This document shows, piece by piece, positions 36,807-62,959 of a stretch of 64,000 nt of DNA. Each line of letters begins with the position of its first letter. Position 1 is the first letter of the stretch. The notes under the pieces are model-generated. The model was given only the letters and a program-made list of their open reading frames with translations, ran no database searches and was not told the origin of the DNA. The DNA comes from an uncultured Acidobacteriota bacterium (GTDB lineage: Bacteria > Acidobacteriota > Blastocatellia > RBC074): positions 736,001-800,000 of the forward strand of contig CAWCKY010000006.1 of NCBI GenBank assembly GCA_963796275.1. The letters are read 5' to 3'. The position numbers were made by a program, and so were the translations under genes.

Positions 36807-38810
<2,004 letters not shown>

Positions 38811-39037
38811 TTCGGCATCCTTCAGATCCTCAATCAGATACCTATATCAGACCGTAAATTAGACAGAAAATTTTCCAGGTTGTATTGGAAGACAGAAATT
38901 TAATGCAGGTGAGCGATAAGTACAATGCCAATGGCTCTGATCACGCTCGATTTTTTTCATGGGATTTTCGGGCAGCGATTGATTTTGAATGAGTATGAGT
39001 GTATATGTGGCGTCACTATATATGGAGTCGCATTCCT

Positions 39038-41782: not shown

Positions 41783-41797
41783 AAGAAAGTTTGGGCT

Positions 41798-42000
41798 GGA
41801 TGGCGGAGCCCTTGGAGTGCGGTTTCTTGAAACCGCTTTGGTAGTTGATTCCTTGAACCGGGAATCCTATGAAACTCTCCGATTGACAATCCACAGCGGC
41901 AGTGGGTCGGGGAATTGCACAGTTGTGCCGGAAACGGTGAGTGAAACAATCGACTACTAAAGCGGTTTCGAGAAACCGCACTCCAAAGGCTCCGCCATCC
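41798..42000. repeat. About 200-bp REP doublet with about 54-bp inverted arms between convergent genes
   Basis: ggatggcggagcccttggagtgcggtttcttgaaaccgctttggtagttgatt / aatcgactactaaagcggtttcgagaaaccgcactccaaaggctccgccatcc. Confidence 0.9.
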
Positions 42001-42082
42001 CATGTTTTCAGATTCATAAAAACGAAGTTGGGGCAAATTCAGGAAATCAACTTACTACTGCTTTTCGCGATAAAGATGCGCG

Positions 42083-44521: not shown

Positions 44522-44522
44522 C

Positions 44523-45420
44523 TCATCCTCCAAGAAGCGATTTGTAACCACCCTGCCGGGGTTGCAGCGCGAAGAGCAGCAGGTTCTCCTGATTGAAGCC
44601 GAGGTTGACCCGCTGCCGGTTGTAGAGTGTGCGGATGAACAGCCCCGCGCCGACCAACAACAGCAGCGACAGCGCTACCTGCGCGACTACCAGCCCGTGG
44701 CTCAGCCGCGACACTGCGCCCGTACTGCGCCGGCCCTGCTTAAGTGCTATCGTCAAATCCAGGCTAGTCGCGCGATAGGCTGGCGCCAGCCCGAACAATA
44801 CGCCGGTCAGCAACGAGGTGGCGATAGTGAACGCCAGCACGCGCCAATTCAGGTTGAGTTCAATCCCAGTGGGCAAAAAAGGAGTATCTCGGTCGGCCAA
44901 CGCCGCCAGTGCGCGCTTGCCCCAGAACGCGAAGAGTATGCCGAGCGCTCCGCCCAGGGATGCGAGCAGGATGCTTTCGGTCAACAATTGCCGGATCAGG
45001 CGCCAGCGCCCCGCGCCGACCGCCAGCCGCACGCTGATCTCCGGGCCGCGCAGAGAAGCTCTCGCCAGCAGAAGGTTCGCCACATTGGCGCACGCGATCA
45101 ACAGGATGGGCACAACGACGTCGAATAGTCCGTAAATCGTGGCTGAATAGCGCTGGCGACCCTCCATCAGTCCCTGGCTGCCGGATCGCGCGACCAGGCG
45201 CGGGTAATCTTTCGTGTCGAGTTTCGCCGGTTCATTTCGCGGCGCGGCGGAGGCATCACCTCCAGCGCCATCGCTTGAAATGCTCCGTTCAGGCTCTCTC
45301 GCGCCTGTTCGAGGCGCGCCCCAGGTTTCAGCCTGCCCATCAAATTTATCCACCATATATCCGGCTTGCCGGCTCTGGCCATCCCACTGCCGAGCAGCAC
45401 CGTCTCAAACGCCAGTGCTT
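44523..45420 (-). pseudogene. Internal, frameshifted fragment of an ADOP permease
   Basis: WWINLMGRLKPG in one frame, LLIACANVANLLLAR...QENLLLF in another; no N- or C-terminal parts. Confidence 0.85.
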
Positions 45421-45457
45421 GAGGCCGGACCGTGCAGTACGTCTTCCTCCCATCAAA

Positions 45458-47890: not shown

Positions 47891-47924
47891 CTCATCATCC
47901 TCCTCATCGCGAAACGATGGTTTA

Positions 47925-48073
47925 GCAGCCCCCGGCGGGTGGATGTTTATAGATTCACGTTCTCACTTGATTCCAGCCGGCGGGGCGACATATAACGCAT
48001 CACATTTCGCTCTTCACGGACCTCAAAGCATTGCTCTATCGAATATTATAAATAGTCCGACCGGTGGGGCTGC
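47925..48073. repeat. About 150-bp double-palindrome element, degenerate copy
   Basis: gcagcccccggcgggtggatgtttatag...gcgacat...tataaatagtccgaccggtggggctgc. Confidence 0.65.
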
Positions 48074-48164
48074 GGGCGCAAAATCCGCTGCACCAACAAT
48101 TCTTAATTTCTCGTTTTCATTTACTAAATGACCAGTAAATACTTGTGAAGATAAAAAAAGCATG

Positions 48165-50675
48165 TCATTCCTGCCTGAGCGCGACCAGCGGATCAACCCG
48201 AGTCGCTCTACGGGCCGGCAGCCAACCGGAAACCGCCGCTACAGCCAGCAACAACAATGTCACCATGGCTATTGTCAGTGGATCGGTTGCGATCGACACG
48301 TACAACATGCCGGCAATCCAGCGCATCGTCGCAAAGGCTGCCGCCAATCCGATCAGCGAACCGGTCGAGACCAGCAGCATCGATTCACCAAGCACCATCC
48401 GTAGAATCTCAGCGCTTTGCGCGCCGAGCGCCATCCGCACGCCGATCTCGTGCGTGCGCCGCGCGACGGTGTAGGACATCACTCCGTACAGCCCGATGCA
48501 GACCAATGCGAGCGCCAGCAACCCGAAGAAGCTGGACAAAACGGCAAAGAGCCGTTCCTTCGCCAACATGCGCGCGATCATCTCGTTCTGTGTTCCGATA
48601 TTTGAAATCGGCAGGTTGCGATCAATTGACTGCACGGCTTGCCTAATTGCGGCTATTACGGTGCTAGGATCGCTCTCGGTGCGCACAGTGAAACTCATCT
48701 CTTCCGGAGGCCCGGGCTGGTTTTGCAGATAAGGTATGTATACCACCGGTCGGATGGCCCCGCGCAAATCGCCGTACTTTGCATCTCGAGCCACGCCGAT
48801 GATCTGAACCTCCCTCATCTCCAAAATTTTGAGGCGCCGGCCGAGCGGGTTTTGATTGGGGAAGAATCGCTGCGCCAGCGCCTGGCTGACGACAGCCACT
48901 TTAGGTGTTTCCTGGATATCCTGCGGCGTCGATTCACGGCCCGACAGCAAGTGAATCCCCATTGTGGCGAGAAACTCGGGGGCGACCGATGCAAGACCTA
49001 CGGACATATTTTCGCCGGCACGCGGCGTGTAGCCTGGTACCTCGACGCGGGGTGTAGAATGATCGCCGGCCACCAGCGGAGCGCGCGAGGAGCTCACGGC
49101 GCGCACGCCGGGCAGGGCGGCGATGTGTTCGGTAATCTGCCGATACAGATTCGCCAATCGCGCCGTTTCATACCCGCTCGAGCCCGGATGTACACTGAAG
49201 ATCAACAGGTTCTCCCGATCGAAACCCGCGTCAATCTGATTGAGGTTGTGTAGTGTGCGGACAAATTGCCCTGCGCCGGCGAGCAACAAGAGCGACATTG
49301 CCACCTGCGCTACGACCAGAGCTTTGCTCAAACGCGACTGCACAGGGCCACTGCTGCCGGGGTTCTCTTTTAGCATCGGCGTCAGATCAATCCGCGTCGC
49401 ACGCAACGCCGGAACCAGGCCGAAGAGAATGCCGGTCAGCATGGAGACTACGGCGGTGAAACCGAGGACGCGCCAATCCAACCTGAGGTCAACGGCAAAC
49501 TCATTCCAGTTCGCAGTCAGCAGCGCGAGCAGCACATCCTTGCCCCAGTCAGCGAAGAGCAGTCCCAGGGCGCCACCCAAAACAGCCAGCAGCAGGCCTT
49601 CGGTCAGTAATTGCTGGATCAATCGAATGCGACTGGCGCCGACAGAGGCGCGGAGGGCCAGCTCTTTCTGCCGGGTTGCGCCGCGGGCCAGCAGCAGATT
49701 GGCCAGATTGATGCAGGCGATCAGAAGTACCAGCCCGACAATCGCCATCAAAATGGCTAACTGACTGGAAAATACCCCGCGCGCGTACATCAACCCTTGA
49801 CTGCCCGAATCCAGCCTGATCTGAGGAGCAGTGCGTTGCTCACTTGCGGCGGGCAGCTCCAGCACATGTCGTTGCAGAATAGCGGTAAGCTCGGCCTGCG
49901 CCTGCGCAGCGCTCACTCCCGGTTTCAGCCGTCCCATAATGTGCAGCCACCAGTTGGACGCCGAATGCTGTCTCTCAGCGTTGCCCGGCGAAACCTGTGC
50001 GAACAGCGCTATCGGCACGGTTATGTTCGGCGCTGAGCCAACATCGAACGTCCCAAAAAATCCCCTTCGTGTAACGCCGACAATTGTGAAGGCCGTACCG
50101 CTGAGATAGACGACCTTTCCGATTACTGCCGGATCGCTATTAAACCTGCGTTGCCAGTAACGATAGCTGATGACCGCTGCCGGTTCTGTGCTTACTTTGT
50201 CGTCATCGTTTGTTAGAACACGACCCAGCAAAGCGGACACGCCAAGATCGGTAAAGTAGCTCCCGGAAACAGCCTGCCAGTGCACCATCTCCGCCTGCCC
50301 ATTCGCGCGCAGATTCAGTCGCTCCAACGACGCAAATGCGAAGACCGAGGCCAGGGTTTGATTCTGATCGCGGAGCCGTTCAAAAGCTGGATAAGAGATC
50401 GAAGTGCTGGTCTGCAGCCCCGTCGCCTCGTCTTTTTCCATTACACCGTTGAAACCGCGTACAACCCCCTGACCGCCCAACCAGCGGAACAAGACCAGTT
50501 GCCCTGGACGACTGACCGGCAGCTCTTTTAACAGCAACGCATCAACCACGCTGAAGATCGCAGTGTTGGCGCCGATGCCGAGGGCCAGCATCAGTACGGC
50601 GATCAGTGTGAAGCCGGGGTTCTTGCGCATAATTCGAAATGCAAAGCGCAGGTCTTGACGAAATCCACCTAACAT
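48165..50675 (-). CDS. ADOP-type duplicated ABC permease
   Basis: RQDLRFAFRIMRKNPGF, LLIACINLANL, EIGVRMALGA, RRATRVDPLVALR; AGGGG RBS before ATG 50675. Confidence 0.92.
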   Translation of the reverse strand: MLGGFRQDLRFAFRIMRKNPGFTLIAVLMLALGIGANTAIFSVVDALLLKELPVSRPGQLVLFRWLGGQGVVRGFNGVMEKDEATGLQTSTSISYPAFERLRDQNQTLASVFAFASLERLNLRANGQAEMVHWQAVSGSYFTDLGVSALLGRVLTNDDDKVSTEPAAVISYRYWQRRFNSDPAVIGKVVYLSGTAFTIVGVTRRGFFGTFDVGSAPNITVPIALFAQVSPGNAERQHSASNWWLHIMGRLKPGVSAAQAQAELTAILQRHVLELPAASEQRTAPQIRLDSGSQGLMYARGVFSSQLAILMAIVGLVLLIACINLANLLLARGATRQKELALRASVGASRIRLIQQLLTEGLLLAVLGGALGLLFADWGKDVLLALLTANWNEFAVDLRLDWRVLGFTAVVSMLTGILFGLVPALRATRIDLTPMLKENPGSSGPVQSRLSKALVVAQVAMSLLLLAGAGQFVRTLHNLNQIDAGFDRENLLIFSVHPGSSGYETARLANLYRQITEHIAALPGVRAVSSSRAPLVAGDHSTPRVEVPGYTPRAGENMSVGLASVAPEFLATMGIHLLSGRESTPQDIQETPKVAVVSQALAQRFFPNQNPLGRRLKILEMREVQIIGVARDAKYGDLRGAIRPVVYIPYLQNQPGPPEEMSFTVRTESDPSTVIAAIRQAVQSIDRNLPISNIGTQNEMIARMLAKERLFAVLSSFFGLLALALVCIGLYGVMSYTVARRTHEIGVRMALGAQSAEILRMVLGESMLLVSTGSLIGLAAAFATMRWIAGMLYVSIATDPLTIAMVTLLLLAVAAVSGWLPARRATRVDPLVALRQE

Positions 50676-50717
50676 ATTCTTCCCCCTATTTTGCACGTGT
50701 GAGGTATACACCATTTC

Positions 50718-50982: not shown

Positions 50983-51052
50983 AGACGGATTAACAGGATA
51001 TTCTAGATTTACAGCTCTCCCTCAATCCTGATGAATCCTGATAATCCTGTCT
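50983..51052. repeat. Inverted nonamer arrays (CAGGATT / AATCCTG)
   Basis: agacggattaacaggatattctagatt ... aatcctgatgaatcctgataatcctgtct. Confidence 0.7.
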
Positions 51053-51072
51053 ATGTATATCGGAGGAAGACA

Positions 51073-52011
51073 ATGGCAAATTCATCGGCAACGGCCAGCA
51101 CACTGCTGGCTCTCTCGAATGAACTGGCCGACGCCGTCGCGCGGGCCGGCCAGTCGATCGTCGCAGTCAACGCGCGCCCTCGCATTCCGTCTAGCGGAGT
51201 TCACTGGCGGCAGGGTCTCATCGTAACTGCAGAACATACCGTTCAGCGTGATGAAGAGATCACACTCACTCTGCCGGACGGACAGACGGTGAAGCCGGAA
51301 TTGGTGGGCCGTGATTCGAGTACAGATTTGGCTGTGCTCAGACTCCCGAGCGCGAACATTGCCAATCAGCCAGTGGCGGAGGTCGGGGATGCGACTGATC
51401 TGAAGATCGGGCACCTGGCGCTCGCCGTTGCGCGTCCCGGTGAGCGCGGCCTGAGCGCGAGCCTGGGCGTGGTCAGCGCGCTCAGCGGATCCTGGCGCAC
51501 CTGGGGCGGTAGTCGCATCGATCAATTTATTCGTCTCGACCTGTCGATCTATCCCGGTTTCTCGGGAGGAGCGCTGGTAGACGCGCGCGGCCGCGTGGCC
51601 GGCATCATTACCTCGGGTCCGCGTAACTCCGTGATGGCGATCCCCGCCGCGACCGTCAACCGGGTGGTTGAGCAATTGTCGTCGAAGGGGCGCATCACGC
51701 GCGGCTTCCTCGGATTGGGTATGCAACCGGTTCGATTGCCCGATGCGCTCAAACAATCGCTCAATCTCGAAGGGCACGGGGGCGTCATCATTGTGGAGGT
51801 TAAACACGGCGGTCCGGCAGATCGGGCCGGCGCATTAATCGGCGATGTCCTGGTCGAACTCGATGGTCGAGCGATCGGCGAGCCGGGCGACGTGCAGGCT
51901 GCGCTCGATCCGGAGCAGGTGGGGAAGACCGTTAAGGCCAAATTTGTGCGCGCTGGCGCGCGGATCGAGTTATCTATCGTAGTGGGCGAGCGACCGCCCA
52001 GGGAGGAGTAG
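51073..52011 (+). CDS. S1C/HtrA-like trypsin protease with PDZ domain, no signal peptide
   Basis: TAEH, DLAVL, PGFSGG; C-terminal PDZ; GGAGG RBS. Confidence 0.88.
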   Translation: MANSSATASTLLALSNELADAVARAGQSIVAVNARPRIPSSGVHWRQGLIVTAEHTVQRDEEITLTLPDGQTVKPELVGRDSSTDLAVLRLPSANIANQPVAEVGDATDLKIGHLALAVARPGERGLSASLGVVSALSGSWRTWGGSRIDQFIRLDLSIYPGFSGGALVDARGRVAGIITSGPRNSVMAIPAATVNRVVEQLSSKGRITRGFLGLGMQPVRLPDALKQSLNLEGHGGVIIVEVKHGGPADRAGALIGDVLVELDGRAIGEPGDVQAALDPEQVGKTVKAKFVRAGARIELSIVVGERPPREE

Positions 52012-52012
52012 A

Positions 52013-52909
52013 ATGTCTGTGGTGGAATCATTGATCGCAGGGACCAACTCCTTATTCGCCGAAGAGTCCGCAGCTCTGGCCGAGCGATTGCGACGCTCTA
52101 CGGTGCAGGTGAGAGATGGCTATCGTGGAGGCGGCTCGGGCATTATCTGGCGCCCCGACGGTCTCATCGTTACAAACGCCCACGTCGTGCGGGGCCGTGG
52201 CGCGCACGTCGAACTTTCAGATGGCCGAGCGTTCGACTCCGTCGTAGTCGCGCGGGACACAAGGCGCGATCTCGCATCCTTGAAGATTCAAGCTGATAAC
52301 CTGCCTGCGGCGGAGATCGGCAATTCCGATGGCCTGCGCGCAGGCGACCTCGTTTTTGCGATGGGCAACCCACTGGGCATTCCAGGCGCGCTGACGGCTG
52401 GAATTATGCAAGCGCATAGTCTCGTCGATGGCCGCCGCGGGCCCCAATGGATTCAAGCGGATGTGCGAATTGCGCCCGGCAACTCGGGCGGCCCGCTGGC
52501 TGATGCGCGAGGGCGCGTCATCGGCGTCAACAGTATGATCGTCAACGGTCTCGCCCTGGCTGTACCGAGCAATGCGGTCGAGCGGTTCCTGCTACGGCGG
52601 CATGAGAAGGCCTATCTTGGCATCACATTTCAACCTGTCCGTATCCCAGGCCGGGGACAATCGGGTCAGGAGCATAACGGATTGCTGGTTTTAAAAGTCG
52701 AGGCCGACAGTCCGGCGGATGAAGCGGGTTTGATGCTTGGTGATGTTTTACACGGAGCAAATGGCAGGGAGCTGGATGATCCCGCCGATTTGGCCGATGC
52801 GCTGGCTGATGTCACCTCGGATCGGACACTGCGCCTCGTTCTCACGCGCGGCGGCAGACAGGTCCATTGTGATGTAACTGTGCGCGCTATTATGGCGGAG
52901 GCCGCGTGA
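52013..52909 (+). CDS. S1C/HtrA-like trypsin protease with PDZ domain
   Basis: TNAHV, DLA, PGNSGGPL; C-terminal PDZ. Confidence 0.92.
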   Translation: MSVVESLIAGTNSLFAEESAALAERLRRSTVQVRDGYRGGGSGIIWRPDGLIVTNAHVVRGRGAHVELSDGRAFDSVVVARDTRRDLASLKIQADNLPAAEIGNSDGLRAGDLVFAMGNPLGIPGALTAGIMQAHSLVDGRRGPQWIQADVRIAPGNSGGPLADARGRVIGVNSMIVNGLALAVPSNAVERFLLRRHEKAYLGITFQPVRIPGRGQSGQEHNGLLVLKVEADSPADEAGLMLGDVLHGANGRELDDPADLADALADVTSDRTLRLVLTRGGRQVHCDVTVRAIMAEAA

Positions 52910-53550
52910 TTCGTGTCCTGATAGCAGCCAACGCCCTGCTCGTACGAGCCGGGTTGGAGGCGCTGCTCAAAGAGAGCACAGGGTCGGAGGTCGTAGGGAG
53001 TATTCCCTCTGCGCAGCTCGCGCGCCAAATCATTGACCTGAGGCCGGATGTAGTGGTGCTGGAATGGGAGCGTCACGACGAAGGATTCTCGCCATCGTCG
53101 ATAGCTTTGGGGGTTTTCGGCGACGAGCCGCGCAGGCCTGAGTTCGTCCTGCTGACCGATGAATCTCACGCCCCCTGGGTATTTAATGCCTTACGGGCGG
53201 GTGTGCGCGCTGTCCTGCCGCGCGACGCCACGACGGAAGAGCTGGAGGCGGCAATTATTGCGGCCGCTGCCGGTCTTGTAACGATGCATCCGGATACGGC
53301 CGACTCGCTGCTCAACAGCGCGCCCTCTCCCGCGCACACGCTCACAGCCACGCAATCCCTCACGCCGCGGGAGGTCGAGGTGCTGCGAATGCTGGCCGAA
53401 GGCCTGGGCAACAAAGAGATCGCGTTGCAGCTCGGCATTTCCGAACACACGGTCAAATTTCACGTCGGCTCGATCTTCACCAAGCTCGATGCGACGAGCC
53501 GCACAGAAGCGGTGATGACCGGTGTCAGGTTGGGCTTGATTATTCTTTGA
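52906..53550 (+). CDS. NarL/LuxR-type regulator with atypical receiver domain
   Basis: LTPREVEVL..LAEGLGNKEIA..LGISEHTVKFH; receiver lacks the conserved Asp residues. Confidence 0.9.
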   Translation: MIRVLIAANALLVRAGLEALLKESTGSEVVGSIPSAQLARQIIDLRPDVVVLEWERHDEGFSPSSIALGVFGDEPRRPEFVLLTDESHAPWVFNALRAGVRAVLPRDATTEELEAAIIAAAAGLVTMHPDTADSLLNSAPSPAHTLTATQSLTPREVEVLRMLAEGLGNKEIALQLGISEHTVKFHVGSIFTKLDATSRTEAVMTGVRLGLIIL

Positions 53551-53639: not shown

Positions 53640-54512
53640 CTATGTCGAATAGATCGGATTGGACAAGAGAAAACTGATGGCGGCGACGCGAGCCGGATCG
53701 GGCTCTTCATCTGGGATGGCGGCCATTATGGCATCGCATCTGGATTTTATTCCATCGCGGAATTCCGGATGAGTGAAGATATAGAGGTCGTTCCGTAAAA
53801 TGCCTTCCAAAACTCTCTCTCCGACTTTCATCGGATCCATATAGACAGAGGAGACTGAGTGCACCTGGCGCATCTTGTCCGTCTCGGCATACCCCGTGTT
53901 CGAGAGATGAGTCGGACGCGTCAGGCCGCTCTCGGCGATGTTTGTCTGAACGGGGCCCGGGCAAAGGACTGATACGCCGATATTCTCCGCGACCAGTTCC
54001 GTTCGTAACGCCTCCGACAGACCGACGACAGCGAACTTCGCGGTAATATATAAACCAGCCCCGAGTGTCGGAAGGAAGCCGGACATCGACGAGGTGGTGA
54101 CGATGTGTCCGCCCTCGCCATGCGCGAGAATGCGAGGGAGGAAAGTCTGGACGCCGTTGATCACGCCTCCGAGATTGACGTTCATGACCCAGTCCCAATC
54201 GTCGTAAGTCGCGAGCTTCATCGGCCCTCCGAGCCCGATTCCCGCGTTGTTGCACAGCACGTGGACCTTACCGAAGACGCTCTCGGTCTCGTCGGCCGCG
54301 CGATACATCGCCTCGCGGTCAGAGACGTCGAGTTCTATGGCATGAACCGCGCCCGTCCCATTGAACGAAGCCATCGCCTCATCCAGGTGGTCGCGCCGGA
54401 TGTCGGCGATCACTACCTTGATGCCCTCGCGGACGAAGACCCTCGCCATAGCAAGGCCGATGCCGCTGGCCCCGCCGGTAATAAATGCGACTTTGTCTTT
54501 CACGTCTTTCAT
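53640..54512 (-). CDS. SDR family oxidoreductase (LigD/N/O-like clade)
   Basis: TGGASGIG, ADIRRDHLD, NNAG, TYDDWDW, YITAK; GGAG RBS before ATG 54512. Confidence 0.9.
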   Translation of the reverse strand: MKDVKDKVAFITGGASGIGLAMARVFVREGIKVVIADIRRDHLDEAMASFNGTGAVHAIELDVSDREAMYRAADETESVFGKVHVLCNNAGIGLGGPMKLATYDDWDWVMNVNLGGVINGVQTFLPRILAHGEGGHIVTTSSMSGFLPTLGAGLYITAKFAVVGLSEALRTELVAENIGVSVLCPGPVQTNIAESGLTRPTHLSNTGYAETDKMRQVHSVSSVYMDPMKVGERVLEGILRNDLYIFTHPEFRDGIKSRCDAIMAAIPDEEPDPARVAAISFLLSNPIYST

Positions 54513-54556
54513 CGATTTCTCCACTCATATGCCCATATGGTCTTTGAGAATTAAAT

Positions 54557-54802
54557 GAAGACTGTGCAAATAAAAGTTAATTGGAATCAGCATTTTCGGA
54601 CCTGAGCGCCAGAGGCGCGGGATGTTTATAGTATTCGATCACCAAAGTCTCACGAGCTCCGGAGGAGCGACATGTAGGCATTCATATGTCGCTCCTCCGG
54701 AGCTCAGGTTATGGTTAAGATCGTGAGCTATAGACATTACGCGCCCCCGGCGCTGAGACGCGAGACTATTGATTCTGTTGGATTTTAATTTGCACATGCT
54801 TC
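54557..54802. mobile_element. MITE with about 20-bp imperfect TIRs and 8-bp target-site duplication, containing a double-palindrome element
   Basis: AATTAAAT | gaagactgtgcaaataaaa ... ttttaatttgcacatgcttc | AATTAAAT; internal gagctccggaggagcgacat / atgtcgctcctccggagctc. Confidence 0.75.
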
Positions 54803-54863
54803 AATTAAATGTAACAGTTCCGGCCCAATCCACTGACAACACTTGGTGCATCACTTCCTGCTC

Positions 54864-55086
54864 TTTACCCCGAAGGGGTTATTGAAGGTAGCCAGGGTTG
54901 GAGTGCAGCGGAAACCCTGGTGGATATGTAATATGGATCCGCATCCTGAAGGGATGCGAGAGCAGTCAGATGTGATAACGATCGATTTCTCGCATCCCTT
55001 CAGGATGCGAAACTATTGGGGACGGTTCCAGGGGTTTCCGCTGCGCTCCAACCCCTGGCTACCTTCAATAACCCCTTCGGGGTAAA
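54864..55086. repeat. About 220-bp near-perfect inverted repeat (REP doublet)
   Basis: tttaccccgaaggggttattgaaggtagccaggg... / ...ccctggctaccttcaataaccccttcggggtaaa; inner cgcatcctgaagggatgcgaga pair. Confidence 0.92.
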
Positions 55087-55185
55087 AGCTTATATTTCAA
55101 TCCCCGAGCATCACCATTTTATGAGATTGATTGCGATCCATTTGTGATATTTATTTTCAAAGACCATATGGCATATGTGCTTGAT

Positions 55186-56583
55186 TCAAGCCCATTCTCT
55201 CGATTCCGCTACGCTGCGGCCGTATGGCTTCATGCCGAGCCAGATGACGAGCGTGCCCAGCGGACCCAGTAAGAGACCGGTTAAAGAGAGCGAAAGCCCG
55301 ATTTGACTCTCGGACTGGAAGACATAATCCGTAAAGACCGCCACAATGGTCGGCCCTATTCCGACTCCGATCACGTTGAAGACGAACAGGAAGAGAGCCG
55401 TGATCTGCCCGCGCATCTGATTGGGCGTAATGATTTGAAGCGCGGCATTGAGCGGGGCTGCGGTACACGCCAGCCAAAAGAGGCTGAATGTCGATACGGC
55501 GATGGCCAGATAAGCGTTCGGCATGAACGGGAACATTATCCCAAACGGCAGCGCCACCAGCTTGGCCAGAAAAACTACGCGCAGGTTCGCGTCGTCGCGT
55601 CCAGCTTTGGCGAAGCGCTCGGCGAGTATGCTTCCGAGCAGCGCTCCGATCGGCAAAACGGCGATGATAATCAGTCCCTGGATCAGCCCGTATTCTTTAG
55701 GCGTCCAACCGAAAGTCCGCATGTAAAAGGCGGGAGCCCAACTGGCGCCGCCGATGGACATGACGATTTGAATGCCCATCCCAATGAATATCGGTGCGAA
55801 GGTAGCTCTGTTCTTGCCTAGGAAAGCGAACACGTCTCTGATCGGAATAGGCTTTGTTGAATCATTCGTGTTAGCGCTGATACGCCCTCTCCTCTTAGGC
55901 TCGCGAACCGTAGCCAGCAGAGCGGCCACGATCAGTCCGGGTAGTCCGACGACGACGAACGTCAGTTGCCAGCCACGCATTGTCGCGCCGATCAGAGGGA
56001 GAGTTACCGGAGGCAAGTTTAAAAACATTTGCGTGATAGCGCCGCCGATGATCAGAGCCAGGCCGGTTCCGGCATAGAATCCGAAGTTGAGAAATGCGAT
56101 AGCTCTCGGCAGTTTTTCTCTGGGAAAAAGATCTGCGAGCATCGAATAAGTCGCCGGCCCGCTGCACGCTTCACCAGACCCGACACCAACTCGGCAAATA
56201 AAGAGCTGCCAGAAGCTCTGAGCCAGGCCGCACAACGCGGTCATGAAACTCCAGATCGCGACTCCGATGCCGAGGATGGCTCGCCGGCTCTTATAATCCG
56301 CCATCCTCGCGATGGGAAGACCGAGAATCACGTAGAAGCAGGAGAACGCGAACCCCATCACCAGACTCATCTGGAAATCGCTCAGTCCCAGGTCGCGTTT
56401 GATCGGCTCGACGAGCAGGGAGACGATCCCGCGGTCGAGAAAGTTGATCATGAGCGCGAGGGCGAAAACGAAAACCGCATACCAGGCCCGGGCCGGGCTG
56501 GGCCAGGGTTCGCTCGTTGCGTCTCGCGCAATTCTCTCATCAGCCAAAGAATCGGCGGAGATTTTAGTCGCTTCAGTGCTCAT
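55186..56583 (-). CDS. MFS transporter (spinster-like)
   Basis: NFLDRGI, IKRDLGLSD, ARMADYKSRR, VGSGEA, LADLFP, PNQMRG. Confidence 0.92.
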   Translation of the reverse strand: MSTEATKISADSLADERIARDATSEPWPSPARAWYAVFVFALALMINFLDRGIVSLLVEPIKRDLGLSDFQMSLVMGFAFSCFYVILGLPIARMADYKSRRAILGIGVAIWSFMTALCGLAQSFWQLFICRVGVGSGEACSGPATYSMLADLFPREKLPRAIAFLNFGFYAGTGLALIIGGAITQMFLNLPPVTLPLIGATMRGWQLTFVVVGLPGLIVAALLATVREPKRRGRISANTNDSTKPIPIRDVFAFLGKNRATFAPIFIGMGIQIVMSIGGASWAPAFYMRTFGWTPKEYGLIQGLIIIAVLPIGALLGSILAERFAKAGRDDANLRVVFLAKLVALPFGIMFPFMPNAYLAIAVSTFSLFWLACTAAPLNAALQIITPNQMRGQITALFLFVFNVIGVGIGPTIVAVFTDYVFQSESQIGLSLSLTGLLLGPLGTLVIWLGMKPYGRSVAESREWA

Positions 56584-56623
56584 CCAATACTCCTTCGGAC
56601 ATTCGCTGCTTCGTGGTTGATCT

Positions 56624-57523
56624 TCATTCCAAGACCAGCTGGCTTGCCCTGGCTTTGGCGTTCATTTGGCGGCGGCCCTCTTCGATCGCCAATCGCCTGG
56701 GATCGGCTTCGCCTTCGGGCAGAGCCGCCAGGATTTCGTCGAAGAGCGCCTTCAACTCTTCCTTGAATTCGGGGTGGGTGAAGATATAGAGGTCATTGCG
56801 TCGGATGCCGCGCAGAACTTTCTCGCCCATCTCTTCTGGCTCCATTCCGAATTGATGTATCTCCGGCAGCCTGGCCATAAACTCCTGATTGGCGGGCCCG
56901 ATGTCGGTGGAGAACTGCGGCGGGCGGATCTTGTCGCTCTCGTATATGGCGGACTTGACAAGCCCCGGACATACCACGGAAACGCCGATGCCATAAGGCA
57001 TCAGGCTCCAGCGCAGCGATTCGCTCAGCCCGCGCACGGCGAACTTCGCGGTCGTATAAACGCCCGCACCGGGCCCGGTGATGAACGAAGCCATCGAGGC
57101 CGTGTTCACGATCTGGCCCCCTTCGCCGTGTTTCTTGATCCGGGGGACGAAGGTCCGGATGCCGTTGATCACTCCGCCGAGATTGACGCCGAGCAACCAG
57201 TCCCAATCTTCATACGTGCATTCATCCATCGGCGCGAAAAAATTGACGCCGGCGTTATTGCAGACTACGTGAACCTTGCCGAACACCCGTTCCGCCTCGT
57301 CCGCCGCGCGATTGAAGGCCGCGCGATCGGTCACGTCCAACCGGATCGGATGCGCGCTTCGGCCCGTCTCACCGAAATGAGCCATCGTGCGATCGAGATG
57401 ATCCTGCCGGATGTCGGCGATAACTACCTTCATGCCGGCGTCATGAAAAACCTTGGCCATACCGAATCCGACGCCGCTGCCGCCGCCGGTGATAAAAGCA
57501 ACTTTTCCCTGTACGTCTTTCAT
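56624..57523 (-). CDS. SDR family oxidoreductase resembling sphingomonad Calpha-dehydrogenases (LigN/LigO/LigD)
   Basis: TGGGSGVG, ADIRQDHLD, NNAGVN, DWDWLLGVNL, NTASMA, YTTAKFAVRGLSESL, CPGLVKS; start MKDV at 57523. Confidence 0.88.
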   Translation of the reverse strand: MKDVQGKVAFITGGGSGVGFGMAKVFHDAGMKVVIADIRQDHLDRTMAHFGETGRSAHPIRLDVTDRAAFNRAADEAERVFGKVHVVCNNAGVNFFAPMDECTYEDWDWLLGVNLGGVINGIRTFVPRIKKHGEGGQIVNTASMASFITGPGAGVYTTAKFAVRGLSESLRWSLMPYGIGVSVVCPGLVKSAIYESDKIRPPQFSTDIGPANQEFMARLPEIHQFGMEPEEMGEKVLRGIRRNDLYIFTHPEFKEELKALFDEILAALPEGEADPRRLAIEEGRRQMNAKARASQLVLE

Positions 57524-57566
57524 AGCGGACCTTTCAATCAAGACTGCCCTTCTACGCGTCCCGACA

Positions 57567-59354
57567 TTAGAGCGGACACCCGCAGTCTTCATCACTCTCC
57601 TTATTTTCCGGAAGCGGGCAGCCGCAGTCTTCCTCGCTCTCTATTTTTTCGGGTGCAGGGAAGAAGTAATGCCGAACATCGTAGCTCGGACGGATCGCAG
57701 TCTGCGGCCGCCATTTGTCAATGGATGCGGATGTCGTATGAGCGAGATCGGTCGTCAGCCAGAGCGGGTTCGTTTCGCCGCCGACGATGACGACATTGAT
57801 GTTTTCCGGCTCGTTCCATGGCGCGATCAACGTGTCATCCGGGACTTTAGCCCAGGTGGCGTACGGTTCGACTCCCCGCCGCGCGAGCGGAACCATAAGG
57901 TTGCTCACGACATCAGCTTCCCAATATTGTTTCGCGGGTATCTTGACGTTCTCCGAGAGCCACCGGGCCAGAGATTCTTTCGTCTCGAAGCCGTGATTTT
58001 CTTTAAGACCTTTCGCCACCAGCGGGTCCATGACCAGCGTGGCCATTGAACGAAGCGCCTGAAACGCTTTCAGCATAATTGCGGTCTCTTCGTGCGCGCC
58101 GCGGCGGTTGGGGGCGCCCATGGCGTTGATGAAGCTCCAACCTCTGAAGAGACTGACGACGCTCTCTTCGGGGCGGAAGCCCTTTTGGACGTGGAACGAT
58201 CCCCAGACGCTCTTCTCTTCATTCTCGGCGACGCACATATTGTTATAGTTGAGATTGTTCCCCTGTGAACCGAGGAAAGTCTCTCCTACTTTGGTGTTCC
58301 CGAGCGTCAGGGTCATCAAAGTCCAGGCCCTGCCGATCGCCGAATTGGCCAGATTCACTGGACTCAGCGCGCCGACCCCGCAATTCATACCTATTTCATG
58401 CCGGATCGGGCCGTTGACGACCATCATTCTGCCGAATGAAGTCGTCGAACTCGGGATGGCGGGTTCACCGGTCGAGGCGATCGCCAGTAACACCGGAAGA
58501 TGCTCCGGTCTGGCGCCCGCCATTACCGCATTGATGGCGACCTTCTCGACGGTGTATTGCGTCCCCCGCTCTTTCTTGGTCGTGATGGTCATCTCGCCGA
58601 TAACCTCATCGGGAGGATGGCCTGTTCCCGTTAGCATTTCAGCCACTTTCTCTTCCGTGGGAAGAATGATCGGCAGTCCATCCGTCCAGCCGTTCTCATA
58701 AAAGAGGCGGCGAAGATTGTCTTCAGTATCCCGTTCCAACAGTCGCGGCTGTTCTGAGAAGGTCGAACTTAATGAAACCTGTTCAAAATTCTCCTGGGTG
58801 AGCGTGTCGATCACGCGCCGCATAATCGGAACGCCGGACACCGGGTCGTCCCCTTCGACATATCGGCGGAGGGTTGAGATGGGCATTCCCACGAGCGGAT
58901 GCGGAGTGAAGGTGAACGGCAGGACCATCCCGTGTATGCGCTGCTCCTTCGCCAGAAAATCGGCGAACCTCATCGTCGCCATCGGAGCTGTGGGGATTCC
59001 GTAATCTTTTTCCAGTCTTCTGCAGTATTCGGCGACCGCCGAAGAGCAGCCGTCTCAGCCGCCGACGCCGAAGATCACGGCATCGCACCTCCGCTTCAAT
59101 TCAGTCCAAAACTCCGGTTCATCCGTAAACATGTTTCCCGGCTTCCTCATAACTTCGGTCTTCACCGAAGGCATCCGTCTGGAAAACCATCCCTTCATCT
59201 CCTCCAGAAATTCATAAGCCCCGCCAAATCCGACATCCACCAGATAAACAGTTTTGCCTTCGATCTCACCAAGTCGGGGAGCCAATGGGGCCGGCTTTGT
59301 CGTATGAGTCGGCCGGCCCACCGGGTTCAAAACCGTATAAAGTGTTTTGGTCAT
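57567..59354 (-). CDS. UGSC-family selenoprotein (Sec100, UxxC) fused to an uncharacterised domain, 595 aa
   Basis: GAGGAG-ATG 59354; in-frame TGA at 59057-59055 in GVGG-U-DGC; the frame continues into ORF 57567-58982; SECIS hairpin follows. Confidence 0.88.
59020..59049 (-). promoter_or_regulatory. Bacterial SECIS element
   Basis: TTCGGC-GGTC-GCCGAA upper stem-loop begins 11 nt after UGA, loop starts with G; lower stem CTGC/GCAG. Confidence 0.8.
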
Positions 59355-59440
59355 TGAGTTCTCCTCAGCGGCACAGCGCCGTGCGCGTGCAACCAAACAG
59401 GTGATTGCAGCGCGCGGTGCCGATCGCGGTATTGATCGGA

Positions 59441-62400
59441 TCAAAAGATGAACTTCAACCCGAACTGAATCTGCCGGGACGAATTGACCGTGTTGAGAAA
59501 TCGCCCGACGTTCGGATTCGGATTCGGCGTCGGGGCAGCGGCCGTTCCAGTGAAAAGAGTAAATTGTGAAGGTGTCTGGAAATTCGGATGATTGGTGGCG
59601 TTGAAAACCTCCGTCCGGAACTGTATGTCCAATTTCTCTGAGATCTTCGTATTCTTCAACATAGCGAGATCGACATTGAAGAAGCCCGGCCCCCTGATCG
59701 AGTTCCTCGGCACATTGCCCAGCATGCCGAGAGGCTGCAAGACATAGCAGCTCGGATCGAACCACTGATTCGGATCGCCTATCAGCCGATCAGAATTACA
59801 ACCCGGGGCGCCGGAATAGTTCGGACGATCTCCGACGATACCGCCCAACCTCGACCGGGCGGGGAAAGTGAAGCCTGTCTGGATATTGATCGGAGTACCG
59901 TCGTAGGTGCGCAGGATTCCGCTCAATTGCCATCCTTCGATCAACTTGTTTCCGCGGAAGGGTAATGGATAGACGGCGTTGGCGCTGAAAGTGTGGGGGA
60001 TATCGAACGAGCAGAGTCCGCGATCGTAGGCTTGATTCAGCGCGTATGTTATCGGAAATGCCCCTTGTTCGAGACCGGAGCTGACCGAGCCGTCGTCGAT
60101 ACACTTCGACCACGTGTAGGCCGCCCCAAGGACAAATCCCTGACTGAACTGCCGATTGAGGCTCGTCTGCATAGAATGGTAAGTCGAGTGGCTGCTCGGC
60201 GCGACGTTGTTCAGTGAGCCGAAGTTGGGATTGGTCGCCATCCCCGAAAAAGGATTGCCCGGCGTGCCAGGCGAGCCTATGCCGCCAAGAGTCCCCATGG
60301 GCAGGTTCTGGTCGCGAATGGAGAACAGATGGACGCCACTCGAGCCGACATAGCCTACTGATGCGATGAAGCTGCCGGGAAGCTCACGCTGGATCGTCAG
60401 GTTGTATTGCATCGCATAAGGCGCGGTGTCTGTCGAATAGTCGAGCCCCGCGAACGCGGTATAGTTCGCGGCGAAGACGGATCCCGGCGGCAGCCCAATG
60501 CCATAGGGGTTTGAAAGAAGCAGTGGCGGAGCCGTAGGATTGCCCGTGGCTAGCCGCAGATTGACCAGAATGTTGGCGCCAGATGGCGGAGCCAGATAAA
60601 AGGCTGGCGCGTATGTGCGAGGGGCTACTGGCTCGTGGAAGATTCCGAAGCCGGCGCGTATCGATGTCTTGTGATCCTTGAACGGATCCCAGGCCAGGCC
60701 GATTCGCGGATCGAGATTCCAGAGGTTCGGATTTTTCGCCAGCACGCGATCGACTGTTGTGAATCCAGTCGATGTCAAGGGATCGAGGATCACGTTGAGA
60801 GGAATCCCTCCGGCTCCCTTGGCGTTCGTCGCGAACGCATATCGCAAACCCAGATTGAGCGTCAGTCGCGGCGTCACCTTCCAATCGTCCTGGATGTAGG
60901 GGAAGATGTCGATTTCGCGGAAATAGCGGGCAGTGGAGAAATCCGGTGACGGCGCCGCCATTCCCAACATATTGAGCGGCGTTCCATTCAGGAAATTCTC
61001 GAGCGTGCCAAAGGTGAAATTTCCGCCGACATAGGCCGGTGCGGAGAGGTTGGTTTGAACCCGCGTCACCGTAGCGCCTATCTTGAGGCTGTGTGATCCG
61101 CTGTTCAATATAAGGTCGTCTCCCACAGTGAACTTGTTCTGTACGAGGACAAACGGCACCGTGCCGCTGGCGCCGATCGGTGTGACCGGCCCGAGAGCCC
61201 CGGTGGCGAAGATCGCGCCGTCCTGCCGCCCTCCGCCGATTATCTGGAGCGCAGGCGTAGAGCCGTCGGTGCGGCCGCGCTCGTTGGTTCGCGTGAAGCT
61301 GAATCGAATCGAGTTGACCACCTTTGGCGAAAAGATCCGTTTCTCTTCGATGGTGAAAAACTGGTTTTTCGTATTGTCAACTTCCGGCCATAAAGCGAGT
61401 TCAGAGAGCGGAAAAGGGATGCGACGGAACGCCCTGTTAACAATATACCGCCCGAAGAGAGAATCCTTCTGCGAGAACGCGTAATCCATACGTCCGAGAA
61501 CATAGTCCTCGTTGATGATCTCATCGGCGACGGATGTATATAGCCCCACGCCGGTTCGACGGCCTTGAGCATCGAGCAGGTCGGCGCCTATCGGCAATCC
61601 CGGCGCGGCGGAGGCGTTTGGAAACGGATAGAGGTCCAATATCTTCGCTATCATCGCCTTGTCGGGATTCGGATCATTGGGATTCGGGACGCCTAAGTTT
61701 ATGTCGGGAGTGGAAGCCGTGCAGGCGGCAGTACTGTTGAGCGCGGCGCAAGGCAATATTCCCTGATGTACGTTCGCGTTCGGAACGAACAGGCGGCCGG
61801 TCTGGCCCTGCGACTGGCGAAGGCCTTCGTAAGTTCCGAAGAAGAAGAGCTTGTCTTGCTTGATCGGTCCTCCGAGCGCGCCTCCGAACTGATTCCTGCG
61901 AAACGTGGGTATGTCCGCCACCGGATCGTCGAAGTAATTCTTCGCGTCGAATACGCTGTTGCGCAGAAATTCGAACGCCGAACCGTGCAGCGCGTTCGAG
62001 CCGGATCTACTCACAGCGTTGACGACTGCGCCGGTTCCTCCATATTCGGCGCTGTAGGTGTTGGTCAATACGCGGAACTCCAGAATCGCCTCGACTCCGA
62101 GAGAATTGCCGGTGACCGACGATCCCGCCCCGTGATTGAAAAATCCCTGCAACTCAGTGTTGTCGAGCAGGAACGATTGTCCGACCGGCCTCGAACCGGA
62201 GACCGAATAGTTTGTTCCCTGACCGTAGAAAGTGGCCGATCCGCCTCCCCCGGCCGGGCTTTGGGGGACGGCCTGCACACCGGGCGACAGCGTCATCAGC
62301 GCCGTAAAATTTCGCCCATTCAGCGGTAGATCGCGCATCTGGGTTGGGGTGATGAGGGTAGAGACCGAGGCGGTACGTACCTCCACTTGCGCTGCCTCGC

Positions 62401-62794
62401 CTACCACGGTAACCGTCTCAGTCGTCGCGCCGGGTGACAGCGTCAGATCCGCGACAGGCTGGCTGCCGACCGTCAGAGTGATCCCCGTGCGGACTACCGT
62501 CTGGAACCCGGTGGCCGAAGCCCGAACTTCATATTCGCCGACGGGCAGATTCGGTATGTTGTATCGCCCCTGTGAATCTGTTATGGCAGATTGTGTGATT
62601 GAGGTTCCGAGGTTCTTCACCTCGATCTTCGCGCCGACCAACACCGCCCCTGAACTATCCGCAACTGTGCCTGAGATGGTCGCCGTTCTGACCTGCGCCT
62701 CGATACGAATCACGCCCACTATGACGATCAGAATAAAGGCGTATATCGAAGCGTTGCAGAACAGCTTCAACTTCCACATTTCCATTCTTGGCAT
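59441..62794 (-). CDS. TonB-dependent receptor with N-terminal carboxypeptidase-regulatory-like domain (Oar-like)
   Basis: ISGTVADSSGAV, LPLNGRNF, YSAEYG, QDDWKVTPRLTLNLGLRY, C-terminal RQIQFGLKFIF; AAAGGAG before ATG 62794. Confidence 0.93.
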   Translation of the reverse strand: MPRMEMWKLKLFCNASIYAFILIVIVGVIRIEAQVRTATISGTVADSSGAVLVGAKIEVKNLGTSITQSAITDSQGRYNIPNLPVGEYEVRASATGFQTVVRTGITLTVGSQPVADLTLSPGATTETVTVVGEAAQVEVRTASVSTLITPTQMRDLPLNGRNFTALMTLSPGVQAVPQSPAGGGGSATFYGQGTNYSVSGSRPVGQSFLLDNTELQGFFNHGAGSSVTGNSLGVEAILEFRVLTNTYSAEYGGTGAVVNAVSRSGSNALHGSAFEFLRNSVFDAKNYFDDPVADIPTFRRNQFGGALGGPIKQDKLFFFGTYEGLRQSQGQTGRLFVPNANVHQGILPCAALNSTAACTASTPDINLGVPNPNDPNPDKAMIAKILDLYPFPNASAAPGLPIGADLLDAQGRRTGVGLYTSVADEIINEDYVLGRMDYAFSQKDSLFGRYIVNRAFRRIPFPLSELALWPEVDNTKNQFFTIEEKRIFSPKVVNSIRFSFTRTNERGRTDGSTPALQIIGGGRQDGAIFATGALGPVTPIGASGTVPFVLVQNKFTVGDDLILNSGSHSLKIGATVTRVQTNLSAPAYVGGNFTFGTLENFLNGTPLNMLGMAAPSPDFSTARYFREIDIFPYIQDDWKVTPRLTLNLGLRYAFATNAKGAGGIPLNVILDPLTSTGFTTVDRVLAKNPNLWNLDPRIGLAWDPFKDHKTSIRAGFGIFHEPVAPRTYAPAFYLAPPSGANILVNLRLATGNPTAPPLLLSNPYGIGLPPGSVFAANYTAFAGLDYSTDTAPYAMQYNLTIQRELPGSFIASVGYVGSSGVHLFSIRDQNLPMGTLGGIGSPGTPGNPFSGMATNPNFGSLNNVAPSSHSTYHSMQTSLNRQFSQGFVLGAAYTWSKCIDDGSVSSGLEQGAFPITYALNQAYDRGLCSFDIPHTFSANAVYPLPFRGNKLIEGWQLSGILRTYDGTPINIQTGFTFPARSRLGGIVGDRPNYSGAPGCNSDRLIGDPNQWFDPSCYVLQPLGMLGNVPRNSIRGPGFFNVDLAMLKNTKISEKLDIQFRTEVFNATNHPNFQTPSQFTLFTGTAAAPTPNPNPNVGRFLNTVNSSRQIQFGLKFIF

Positions 62795-62959
62795 TCTTTC
62801 TCCTTTCATTATTCATCGCCTGCGTTAAGTAAGGAATCGATAGCGATTAATCCGCATGCGCCGCATTTGGTGGATGGCGCAACGGACTGCAAGAACGGAG
62901 ATCAATTTAGACTTCAGAGAAATGGGCTCTGATATTTATGAAAGCCGAATACGAGAGCC

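Follow-up and report, generated by a model that had tools for sequence, protein, structure and literature searches.

The 64,000-nucleotide stretch of DNA analysed here, called the window below, comes from an uncultured Acidobacteriota bacterium (GenBank assembly GCA_963796275.1, contig CAWCKY010000006.1, positions 736,001 to 800,000). It carries a cluster of five co-oriented genes, all on the minus strand and spanning 53640..62809, which encode a selenoprotein, two short-chain dehydrogenase/reductases (SDRs) and two putative transport proteins. We propose that the cluster is an operon for uptake and catabolism, that its conserved core is 'Lig-type SDR(s) + two-domain selenoenzyme', and that this core, by analogy with known enzymes, would perform an SDR-coupled, selenol- or thiol-dependent reductive step on an imported alcohol. 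We hold this proposal tentatively, with somewhat less than even confidence. The layout of the cluster is confirmed, and its interpretation is partly supported. From its first gene on, the cluster reads:

59441..62809, minus strand: TonB-dependent-receptor-like outer-membrane protein, 1122 amino acids (aa)
57567..59354, minus strand: selenoprotein gene, 595 codons plus stop, with one UGA read through
56624..57523, minus strand: SDR1, 299 aa (Pfam adh_short, 164.7 bits)
55186..56583, minus strand: spinster-like transporter of the major facilitator superfamily (MFS), 465 aa (Pfam MFS_1, 146.7 bits)
53640..54524, minus strand: SDR2, 294 aa (Pfam adh_short, 169 bits)

A first-pass annotation, made from the letters of the window, had read the first four genes in this order and orientation, with gaps of 40-90 bp. 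Both the order and the orientation stand, and the gaps between the receptor, selenoprotein, SDR1 and MFS genes measure 86, 43 and 40 nucleotides (nt).

The selenoprotein gene, the only copy in the 9.46-Mb genome, has a single in-frame TGA (59057..59055, codon 100). Read as selenocysteine (Sec), it gives a protein of 595 aa with the motif GVGG-U-DGC (Sec100-D-G-Cys103). Alternatively, the UGA could end a 99-aa peptide, and a 471-aa open reading frame (ORF) could be translated separately from ATG 58982. This is how public gene calls treat such genes: the best 120 database relatives are all 356-479 aa long, cover 60-79% of the query and begin after the UGA. The hairpin that follows the UGA, when folded alone, is no better than shuffled sequence (z 0.27), which also speaks for separate translation. 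However, other observations make this alternative barely credible. First, the codon aligned to Sec100 is TGA at 61 of 80 homologous loci from species genomes, Cys at 17, Leu at one and truncated at one, and the 17 Cys forms are single uninterrupted ORFs. Second, conservation continues across the UGA in the full-length alignment of 30 sequences, where no Cys-type positions other than U/C100 and C103 are invariant. Third, a Shine-Dalgarno-like GAGGAG lies six bases upstream of the start codon, ATG 59354, and no such box stands before the internal ATG 58982. Fourth, the genome encodes the full Sec machinery (selA, selB, selD and tRNA-Sec). Last, the hairpin covaries; it is the following element:

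59020..59049, minus strand: hairpin resembling a selenocysteine insertion sequence (SECIS), upper stem UUCGGC/GCCGAA, loop GGUC, starting 6-13 nt after the UGA

Of its 8 pairs, 7 vary on both sides among 37 homologues, and its covariation score of 0.254, compared with 0.153 for shuffled sequences, was reached by none of 500 shuffles. RNAalifold gave no single SECIS consensus because two hairpin registers coexist, the register of the nearest relatives being shifted by 3 nt. A search of the locus against Rfam matched no SECIS family. We consider the 595-aa protein to be a real selenoprotein, and the Sec reading to be well supported by these comparisons of sequences. The selD match itself (G000:C7:302299-303228) has an in-frame TGA, so it is apparently a selenoprotein as well.

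The predicted parts of the selenoprotein are:

58863..59333, minus strand: UGSC redox domain, residues 8-164 (Pfam PF24696, 71.6-75.3 bits, cutoff 25)
57687..58772, minus strand: 'X domain', residues 195-556, about 360 aa, with no family or convincing solved fold
57570..57686, minus strand: C-terminal tail, residues 557-595, with two EDCGCPL repeats (four Cys)

The first-pass annotation was right to call this product a UxxC selenoprotein, but the protein is larger than it had assumed: the UGSC domain makes up residues 8-164 of 595, and a C-terminal part of 430 aa had been missed. This part probably binds the substrate. Genes that encode the X domain are called X genes below.

Zhang and Gladyshev (2008; PMC2398784), in the parts that concern this family, placed UGSC proteins among the most abundant predicted selenoproteins of aquatic metagenomes, gave a Sec:Cys ratio of 255:21 in GOS, guessed a thioredoxin-like fold, mentioned a 'UGSC/Unknown_1 fusion' and listed the UxxC motif of PrdB in Table 2. 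The window protein is like this family in its N-terminal match to Pfam UGSC, in having U-x-x-C at the same position with the SECIS directly downstream, and in a high Sec-to-Cys ratio (61:17) among its homologues. It is unlike the small stand-alone form of about 150-180 aa with a literal UGSC, as it has the tetrapeptide UDGC and the 430-aa extension, and its modelled fold is flavodoxin/CheY-like, against the thioredoxin-like guess of 2008. The stricter NCBIfam model NF041046 (UGSC) gives 55.6 bits, under its cutoff of 125. In databases, the post-UGA halves carry the names 'hypothetical' or 'UGSC family (seleno)protein'. We take the long UGSC form to be a widespread, enzyme-sized protein that gene callers cut at the UGA.

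The association of X genes with SDRs was found to depend on the clade. A word-indexed search gave 5367 proteins at E<=1e-3 among 8000 candidates scored. In a set with a single genome for each species, relatives of the selenoprotein are encoded at 595 loci or more, and the hosts are Acidobacteriota, Chloroflexota, Actinomycetota, Desulfobacterota, Binatia, Rokubacteria, and Alpha- and Gammaproteobacteria. When a tree of 112 family members is read along with the Sec-site motifs, two groups emerge: a U-(D/P/N)-G-C clade, to which the window belongs, and U/C-S-x-C clades; three GT-U-PGC loci are nested in the U/C-S-x-C clades by tree and were counted with U-x-G-C by motif. If Lig-like is taken to mean 40% identity or more across 150 aa or more, such an SDR is encoded at 18 of 159 homologous loci. 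In 16 of these, from Acidobacteriota, Chloroflexota and Bacillota, it lies no more than 600 nt from the X gene, and in the two others, metagenome-assembled genomes (MAGs) of Actinomycetota, SDRs lie at 6-7 kb. The 16 loci all fall within or close to the window's U-x-G-C clade. The two groups of loci have the following neighbours:

U-x-G-C group, 76 loci: Lig-like SDR within 600 nt at 13, thioredoxin-reductase-like (TrxR-like) flavoprotein within 600 nt at 1
U/C-S-x-C group, 66 loci: Lig-like SDR within 600 nt at 0, TrxR-like flavoprotein within 600 nt at 25

The TrxR-like neighbour is a 310-aa pyridine-nucleotide-disulphide oxidoreductase, the size of a thioredoxin reductase. The clade-specific adjacency of the SDR, at 13 of 76 loci versus 0 of 66, suggests that SDR and selenoenzyme are functionally linked. 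The Pfam tally suggests this as well, since SDRs are the top neighbour family: among 93 ORFs within 2.5 kb of X at 30 dereplicated U-x-G-C loci, there are eight adh_short members, followed by URO-D and Fer4 (three each) and by tannase/feruloyl esterase and aldo-keto reductase (two each).

It could be argued that the adjacency has no functional meaning and that the selenoprotein, placed in this operon by chance, has a general role in antioxidant or thiol-disulfide chemistry. The majority of homologous loci have no SDR, and UGSC proteins still appear only as uncharacterised redox-motif proteins in the relevant passages of reviews of 2022 and 2026 (PMC9312934, PMC13188914). We consider this very improbable, because the adjacency recurs across phyla, is confined to one clade and has the spacing of an operon (43 nt in the window). 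Additionally, the window's genome (9.46 Mb on 7 contigs, 94.7% complete) has three Lig-like SDR genes, and two of them flank the MFS gene within 4 kb of the only X gene; by-hand arithmetic puts the chance of such a placement at about 2e-6. The reverse search agrees. Starting from SDR1, matches at E<=1e-60 were found in 3 of 401 sampled genomes of the phylum, and in two of the three (G000 and G327) two SDRs adjoin the X gene. G327 has two SDRs in tandem, representing the two types described below, and 68 nt after them a Sec-containing X gene; the SDR of the third genome, G318, is on its own within a stretch of 12 kb.

On the X tree, the SDR-bearing loci are distributed over separate sub-lineages: that of the window, an Acidobacteriaceae MAG (L030), Dehalococcoidales (L029 and L036-L038) and a Bacillota MAG (L035), besides the two actinomycete MAGs. 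The first-pass annotation had made a conserved neighbourhood one of the tests of its reading. A neighbourhood with an SDR is conserved at the 16 loci given above, but most relatives of the same clade are without one. Locus L030 has the order X-SDR-tannase-SDR-SDR-SDR-X, and tannase/feruloyl esterase genes lie between X genes both here (7986-17302) and in L040 (2006-8366), two unrelated MAGs. Three loci have URO-D-like genes near X. Together, the tannase/feruloyl esterase and URO-D-like genes give the neighbourhood of the X-SDR loci an aromatic flavour. Upstream of the L030 cluster we also noted a helix-turn-helix regulator with a shikimate-kinase domain, a thiolase, an enoyl-CoA hydratase/3-hydroxyacyl-CoA dehydrogenase and an ADP-forming acyl-CoA synthetase.

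Both SDRs are intact and of the classical type (TGGGSGVG/TGGASGIG, YTTAK/YITAK), with the Asp-type NAD preference of VIADIR, and are paralogues with 58% identity. In the PDB, SDR1 matches 3ioy (7.4e-94), 4ya6 (2.3e-83), 4y98 (2e-76) and 4yae (2e-65) before the next family at 2e-43; SDR2 matches 4ya6 (1.8e-77), 4y98 (5e-73), 3ioy (7.9e-70) and 4yae (1.6e-69) before the next family at 4.3e-50. In bits, 4ya6, 4y98 and 4yae score 224-283 with both SDRs, and the next family at most 174. From the table order and text of PMC4858972, 4ya6 was assigned to LigO, 4y98 to LigD and 4yae to LigL. On this assignment, LigO, LigD and LigL are the closest characterised relatives of SDR1 and SDR2 among the named structures, as the first pass had suggested; SDR2 is roughly 47% identical to 4ya6 by a hand count of the printed alignment. 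Of the motifs named there, ADIRQDHLD, DWDWLLGVNL, KFAVRGLSESL and CPGLVKS are all in SDR1, and SDR2 has variants of them; the last three match 3ioy rather than LigD, LigO or LigL.

It had also been suggested that two SDRs could cover both C-alpha stereoisomers. Both have better scores with LigO and LigD, which are alpha-R enzymes, than with LigL, which is alpha-S; thus, similarity does not show that they are stereo-complementary. The two types do recur together. A tree of X-associated SDRs has an SDR1-type clade and an SDR2-type group, and both types co-occur in the window's lineage, L029, L030, L076/L081 and G327.

The first-pass observation that the window has no glutathione S-transferase (GST) extends to the whole genome, where GST_N and GST_C have 0 matches and GST_N_3 has a single one, of 24 bits, to an 82-aa frame of another contig. 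Models for gshA (TIGR01434) and gshB (TIGR01380) also have 0 matches in this genome, although the reach of the gshA model is narrow, as it was positive in only 1 of 14 control genomes. The genome therefore looks free of glutathione synthesis and of GSTs. With no GST fold, gshA or gshB, the canonical GST etherase route is unavailable to these Lig-type SDRs. Elsewhere the genome has one LigB-type and one intradiol dioxygenase gene.

We propose a model that covers the entry of the substrate, its oxidation and the selenium-dependent step. The TonB-type receptor would carry the substrate over the outer membrane, and the spinster-like MFS transporter would carry it over the inner one. In the cytoplasm, the two NAD-dependent SDRs would oxidise a secondary alcohol, probably a benzylic one, to a ketone. 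The selenoenzyme would hold this ketone in its X domain, and Sec100 and Cys103 would carry out a two-electron reductive step at the carbon beside the carbonyl. In this step the selenolate would attack, the leaving group would depart, and Cys103 would resolve the adduct to give an Se-S bond. Thiol systems of the cell would then reduce this bond again, possibly via the Cys-rich tail. The substrate is likely to be a plant-derived aromatic alcohol, and beta-O-4 dimers are, by analogy, the leading candidate.

By analogy with the Lig etherase/LigG system, 2-ketopropyl-coenzyme M (CoM) reductase and the glycine/proline reductases, an SDR oxidation followed by a Sec/Cys step seems the most economical mechanism, although the selenoenzyme is as a protein unrelated to the enzymes of all three. 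In the Xanthobacter epoxide pathway, the R- and S-hydroxypropyl-CoM dehydrogenases, two SDRs with complementary stereospecificity, make a ketone, and the redox-active Cys pair of 2-ketopropyl-CoM oxidoreductase/carboxylase reductively cleaves the alpha C-S bond. The window would resemble this pathway in having two SDRs and then a reductive step by a redox pair. However, the 2-ketopropyl-CoM enzyme is a disulfide oxidoreductase dependent on flavin adenine dinucleotide, whereas the selenoprotein has no flavin domain, another fold, and Sec in place of Cys.

The glycine/sarcosine/betaine and D-proline reductases use the UxxC selenoproteins GrdB and PrdB, which are fed by thioredoxin reductase and thioredoxin. 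Here the likeness lies in a U-x-x-C selenoenzyme, in the proposed reductive cleavage alpha to a carbonyl via a Cys-resolved Se-C adduct, and in the thioredoxin-reductase-like neighbour of the X sister clade. The window selenoprotein differs in being a single chain with a different substrate domain; no pyruvoyl partner subunit was seen, and when residues 1-190 and 195-556 were compared with Pfam, allowing E values as high as 10, GRDB (PF07355) was not matched and the list held nothing besides UGSC and one chance hit.

The sphingomonad Lig pathway, as described in the sections of PMC4858972 on its dehydrogenases, is similar in its SDRs, of which the window's nearest are LigO, LigD and LigL, and in having several SDR paralogues per cluster. 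The logic that we propose is also shared: an alcohol is oxidised and a thiol-type nucleophile then cleaves beside the ketone, so that the cycle would be redox-neutral. The differences are that no GST-fold or glutathione-synthesis genes were found in the window's genome, that the candidate cleaving enzyme is an unrelated selenoprotein, and that the host is an Acidobacteriota soil bacterium, with the X-SDR pairing also present in anaerobic lineages.

Several points weigh against the proposal. Most of the window's own clade shows no SDR link: 63 of the 76 U-x-G-C loci, many of them on short contigs, have no SDR within 600 nt, and these include a Terriglobia group (60-67% identical) that is closest to the window's lineage. 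The family at large works without SDRs, so that the link may be a specialisation of few lineages. The clade also lacks a dedicated reductase, with a TrxR-like gene at no more than 600 nt at only 1 of 76 loci. The window has no ring-cleavage or other downstream aromatic genes, including genes for processing hydroxypropiovanillone (HPV) or vanillate, and the genes on either side of the cluster are for MacB/FtsX permeases, HtrA-like proteases and a VWA protein. The best solved relative of SDR1, 3ioy, is an uncharacterised Novosphingobium SDR that is 35% identical to LigD according to PMC4858972, and the Lig dehydrogenases are known to be promiscuous (PMC8612281). Finally, we infer the order of the steps, the role of Sec as nucleophile rather than electron relay, and the identity of the substrate; the invariant Asp, Glu and His residues of the X domain could themselves form the catalytic site.

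In its most specific form, the model takes a lignin beta-O-4 dimer as substrate. The SDRs would yield a C-alpha ketone of the alpha-(2-methoxyphenoxy)-beta-hydroxypropiovanillone (MPHPV) type, Sec100 would displace the C-beta phenolate, and Cys103 would release HPV, so that one protein would replace LigE/F/P, LigG and glutathione. We judge this version, a proposal drawn by analogy, to be unlikely. The similarity of the two SDRs to LigO, LigD and LigL (2e-65 to 2e-83) lies far above that to the next family, the genome has no GST fold, gshA or gshB, and alpha-keto ethers are chemically apt for attack by a thiolate or selenolate, as is established for LigE/F. Tannase/feruloyl esterase genes within two X clusters, URO-D neighbours, and the LigB-type and intradiol dioxygenase genes elsewhere in the genome are also consistent with it, and two to four SDR paralogues per cluster would suit a racemic substrate, as in the Lig pathway (PMC4858972, in part). 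Conversely, an SDR similarity of about 45-50% leaves the substrate unfixed, both SDRs are closer to the alpha-R enzymes, the window has no HPV/vanillate-processing genes, and the spinster-like MFS transporter points to an amphipathic or lipid-like cargo. X-SDR pairs also occur in MAGs of anaerobic lineages (Dehalococcoidales, Desulfobacteraceae-like and Bacillota), and to our knowledge none of these groups has a known beta-etherase pathway. Full-text searches of the literature gave no precedent for a non-GST bacterial etherase.

A different division of labour within the protein should also be considered. The UGSC domain may be a built-in, thioredoxin-type electron carrier, and the X domain a reductase or lyase working at its own Asp/Glu/His site, possibly with a metal. 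The SDRs may then act later or reductively, the family would consist of TrxR-driven, Stickland-like terminal reductases with many substrates, and the bond that is cleaved need not be the alpha-bond of an SDR product. We regard this as a serious rival, although a somewhat unlikely one. It is favoured by the dedicated TrxR-like partner at 25 of 66 sister-clade loci, by the invariant acidic and His residues of the X domain, which include D225, E377, E379 and H388, and by an exchangeable redox module: at the one such locus examined, L007 (982-2577), the X domain is fused to an AhpC/TSA CxxC domain in a protein of 532 aa. Two small genomes of one Acidobacteriota genus, G318 and G327 (3.9 and 2.9 Mb), have 29 and 15 selenoprotein matches, numbers typical of substrate-diversified catabolic or respiratory enzymes. 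Against it, U/C100 and C103 are the sole universally invariant redox residues and lie in the same chain as X (model predicted template-modelling score, pTM, 0.86), which fits a catalytic role too. It also leaves unexplained why Lig-type SDRs, in two conserved types, recur as the neighbour.

This reading could further draw on weak fold echoes of the X domain with class-I fumarate hydratase and with Toblerone-fold ring-opening amidohydrolases, but these matches are too weak to count. AlphaFold2 modelled the full protein with a predicted local distance difference test (pLDDT) of 87.0 and the X domain alone with a pLDDT of 86.1 and a pTM of 0.87. The best Foldseek match of the isolated X domain was the fumarate hydratase (E 1.2e-3, template-modelling (TM) score 0.20), and its best VIA-align match had a Z of 5.3 over 75 residues; neither was taken as a fold assignment. 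The amidohydrolases (E 0.03) were too weak for one as well, and pieces of phage capsids or encapsulins (Z about 5 over 75-80 residues) were rejected. Foldseek with the full model reached a TM of only 0.18, with generic alpha/beta proteins. A Pfam scan of the X domain at E up to 10 gave nothing except a chance 14.8-bit hit, the whole selenoprotein had no match below E 0.64 among PDB sequences, and a search of the ESM Atlas returned unnamed clusters of the selenoprotein's own family and nothing else.

The UGSC domain was modelled with a pLDDT mostly above 90. For residues 30-192 of this predicted model, the top 50 VIA-align matches were flavodoxin-, CheY- or Rossmann-like (Z 7.6-9.8), with no thioredoxin among them; the best, with a root-mean-square deviation of 3.1 over 122 residues, were generic alpha/beta folds. 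The model suggests a flavodoxin/CheY-like three-layer fold. Cobalamin-binding domains (7te2, 8j2w and 8ssd) were among the matches, but cobalamin binding was rejected as no DxHxxG motif was seen.

A broader version of our proposal would make the U-x-G-C clade a one-chain, glutathione-independent, Sec-dependent beta-etherase or lyase and the wider family a new class of TrxR-driven reductive C-X lyases comparable to the Stickland reductases; it strikes us as doubtful. In the window protein, the 39 residues of the C-terminal tail have a pLDDT below 60 and are disordered in the model. At least two Cys are found in the C-termini of 27 of 60 readable proteins of the U-x-G-C clade, mostly as C-x-D-G-x-C, versus 6 of 63 in the U/C-S-x-C clade. 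The Cys-rich tail may be a mobile redox arm that replaces a dedicated reductase partner. Many U-x-G-C-clade proteins end in R-M-P-x4-C-x-D-G-x-C-G; CGC repeats are found in the window's lineage, and a basic tail with SGYD at its end in others. U/C-S-x-C-clade proteins mostly stop directly after D-x-W-R.

The pairing gives the orphan UGSC family a concrete assay, namely SDR plus selenoenzyme on alpha-hydroxy and alpha-keto ethers, and this locus and its relatives show that the X domain travels either with a dedicated TrxR-like partner or with Lig-type dehydrogenases. If the beta-etherase reading is true, UGSC selenoproteins would gain a first function and ether cleavage a new protein fold. The reading would also account for the use of lignin-derived dimers by bacteria without glutathione, among them soil Acidobacteriota and sediment Chloroflexota, and would offer a cofactor-lean enzyme for lignin valorisation. 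Should ether cleavage fail, the conserved pairing would still indicate a new selenium-dependent catabolic reaction.

Within the window's own taxonomic family the two domains are arranged differently. Searches of 40 other relatives found no fused X protein and, at E<=1e-40, no Lig-like SDR. A distant X domain (34-41% identity) occurs in a separate frame in 18 of the 40 genomes, and 15 of these 18 have a stand-alone UGSC frame with an in-frame TGA, mostly adjoining the X gene (both counts include the unpublished genome G004). The separate frames represent the same two functions in a split or alternative form. In L007, the X-AhpC/TSA fusion is followed at 2599-3126 by a classical 176-aa U-G-S-C selenoprotein. 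Across the family, the X domain thus always accompanies a dithiol or selenothiol module, whether UGSC, AhpC-like, or UGSC with a TrxR-like enzyme, and this pattern of redox partners favours our proposal. Most matches in G318 and G327 have one in-frame TGA, and several also have in-frame TAG/TAA or are split into two frames; the observation also takes in L188 5396-7096. This expansion of paralogues is unusual for a selenoenzyme. Neighbourhoods in G318 and G327 gave no clue to the substrate, and nor did those of the rhizobial Cys forms (malonyl-CoA decarboxylase, AMP-binding enzyme, X, TrxR-like, GntR and ABC transporter).

The transport genes are less conserved than the core. The receptor's Pfam scores are 617 bits for OMP_b-brl_4 (residues 266-1115), 80.7 for CarboxypepD_reg and 35.7 for TonB_dep_Rec_b-barrel. 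The description of the MFS protein as spinster-like was borne out: its best solved relative is 6e8j (6.7e-38, 134 bits), which we take to be a Hyphomonas spinster homologue, followed by SPNS1 and SPNS2 (38-44 bits). The expected co-occurrence of receptor and MFS with the selenoprotein did not hold up, as receptor homologues were near a selenoprotein homologue at 0 of 80 genome loci and MFS homologues at 1 of 80 (L044, 34% identity). Both are kept only in metagenomic relatives of about 90% identity, the receptor in L103, L104, L165, L167 and L172. In two such relatives, L105 (1976-3580) and L106 (6245-7849), the receptor matches in three fragments only, which cover query residues 1-200, 505-736 and 1018-1122; the gene has apparently lost internal stretches there, while X-SDR1-MFS(-SDR2) is intact.

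The other features in and beside the cluster are:

54549..54808, no strand: copy 1 of a palindromic repeat resembling a miniature inverted-repeat transposable element (MITE), about 260 nt
54864..55086, no strand: second palindromic repeat, which matches its own reverse complement
52906..53550, plus strand: LuxR-family (GerE) regulator, convergent with SDR2 (Pfam GerE, 81.8 bits)

As the first pass had it, SDR2 is set apart solely by MITE insertions. The 660-nt spacer between MFS and SDR2 is made up of the two palindromic repeats, and in the relatives of about 90% identity SDR2 follows MFS after only about 200-290 nt. The spacer repeats gave 138 high-scoring segment pairs (HSPs) at 82 places on all 7 contigs of the genome. 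Other genomic copies of copy 1 are 90-95% identical and lie in both orientations; the second repeat has few other matches, with 12 HSPs starting within the second half of the spacer. One repeat copy adjoins the genome's third Lig-like SDR (C6, about 1981267-1981516). Rfam microRNA matches at the MITE hairpins were dismissed as chance, and a scan of the cluster for promoters and terminators was no better than shuffles. Among the public sequencing runs listed as containing this DNA there was none of RNA, and the DNA runs contained it in small shares. Whether the GerE regulator belongs to the operon is uncertain; it shares sequence cluster c30 with two regulators beside the X-SDR pair of Dehalococcoidales L037.

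Further out, a tandem pair of HtrA-like Trypsin_2/PDZ proteases lies at 51031-52909, and five large paralogous MacB_PCD/FtsX permeases (810-927 aa) stand in an array with a 277-aa FtsX fragment at 31958-50714. A planctomycete-type gene pair, DUF1552 (HXXSHH) and DUF1585/1587/1588/1592/1595 (PSD/PSCyt), was found at 35341-38810.

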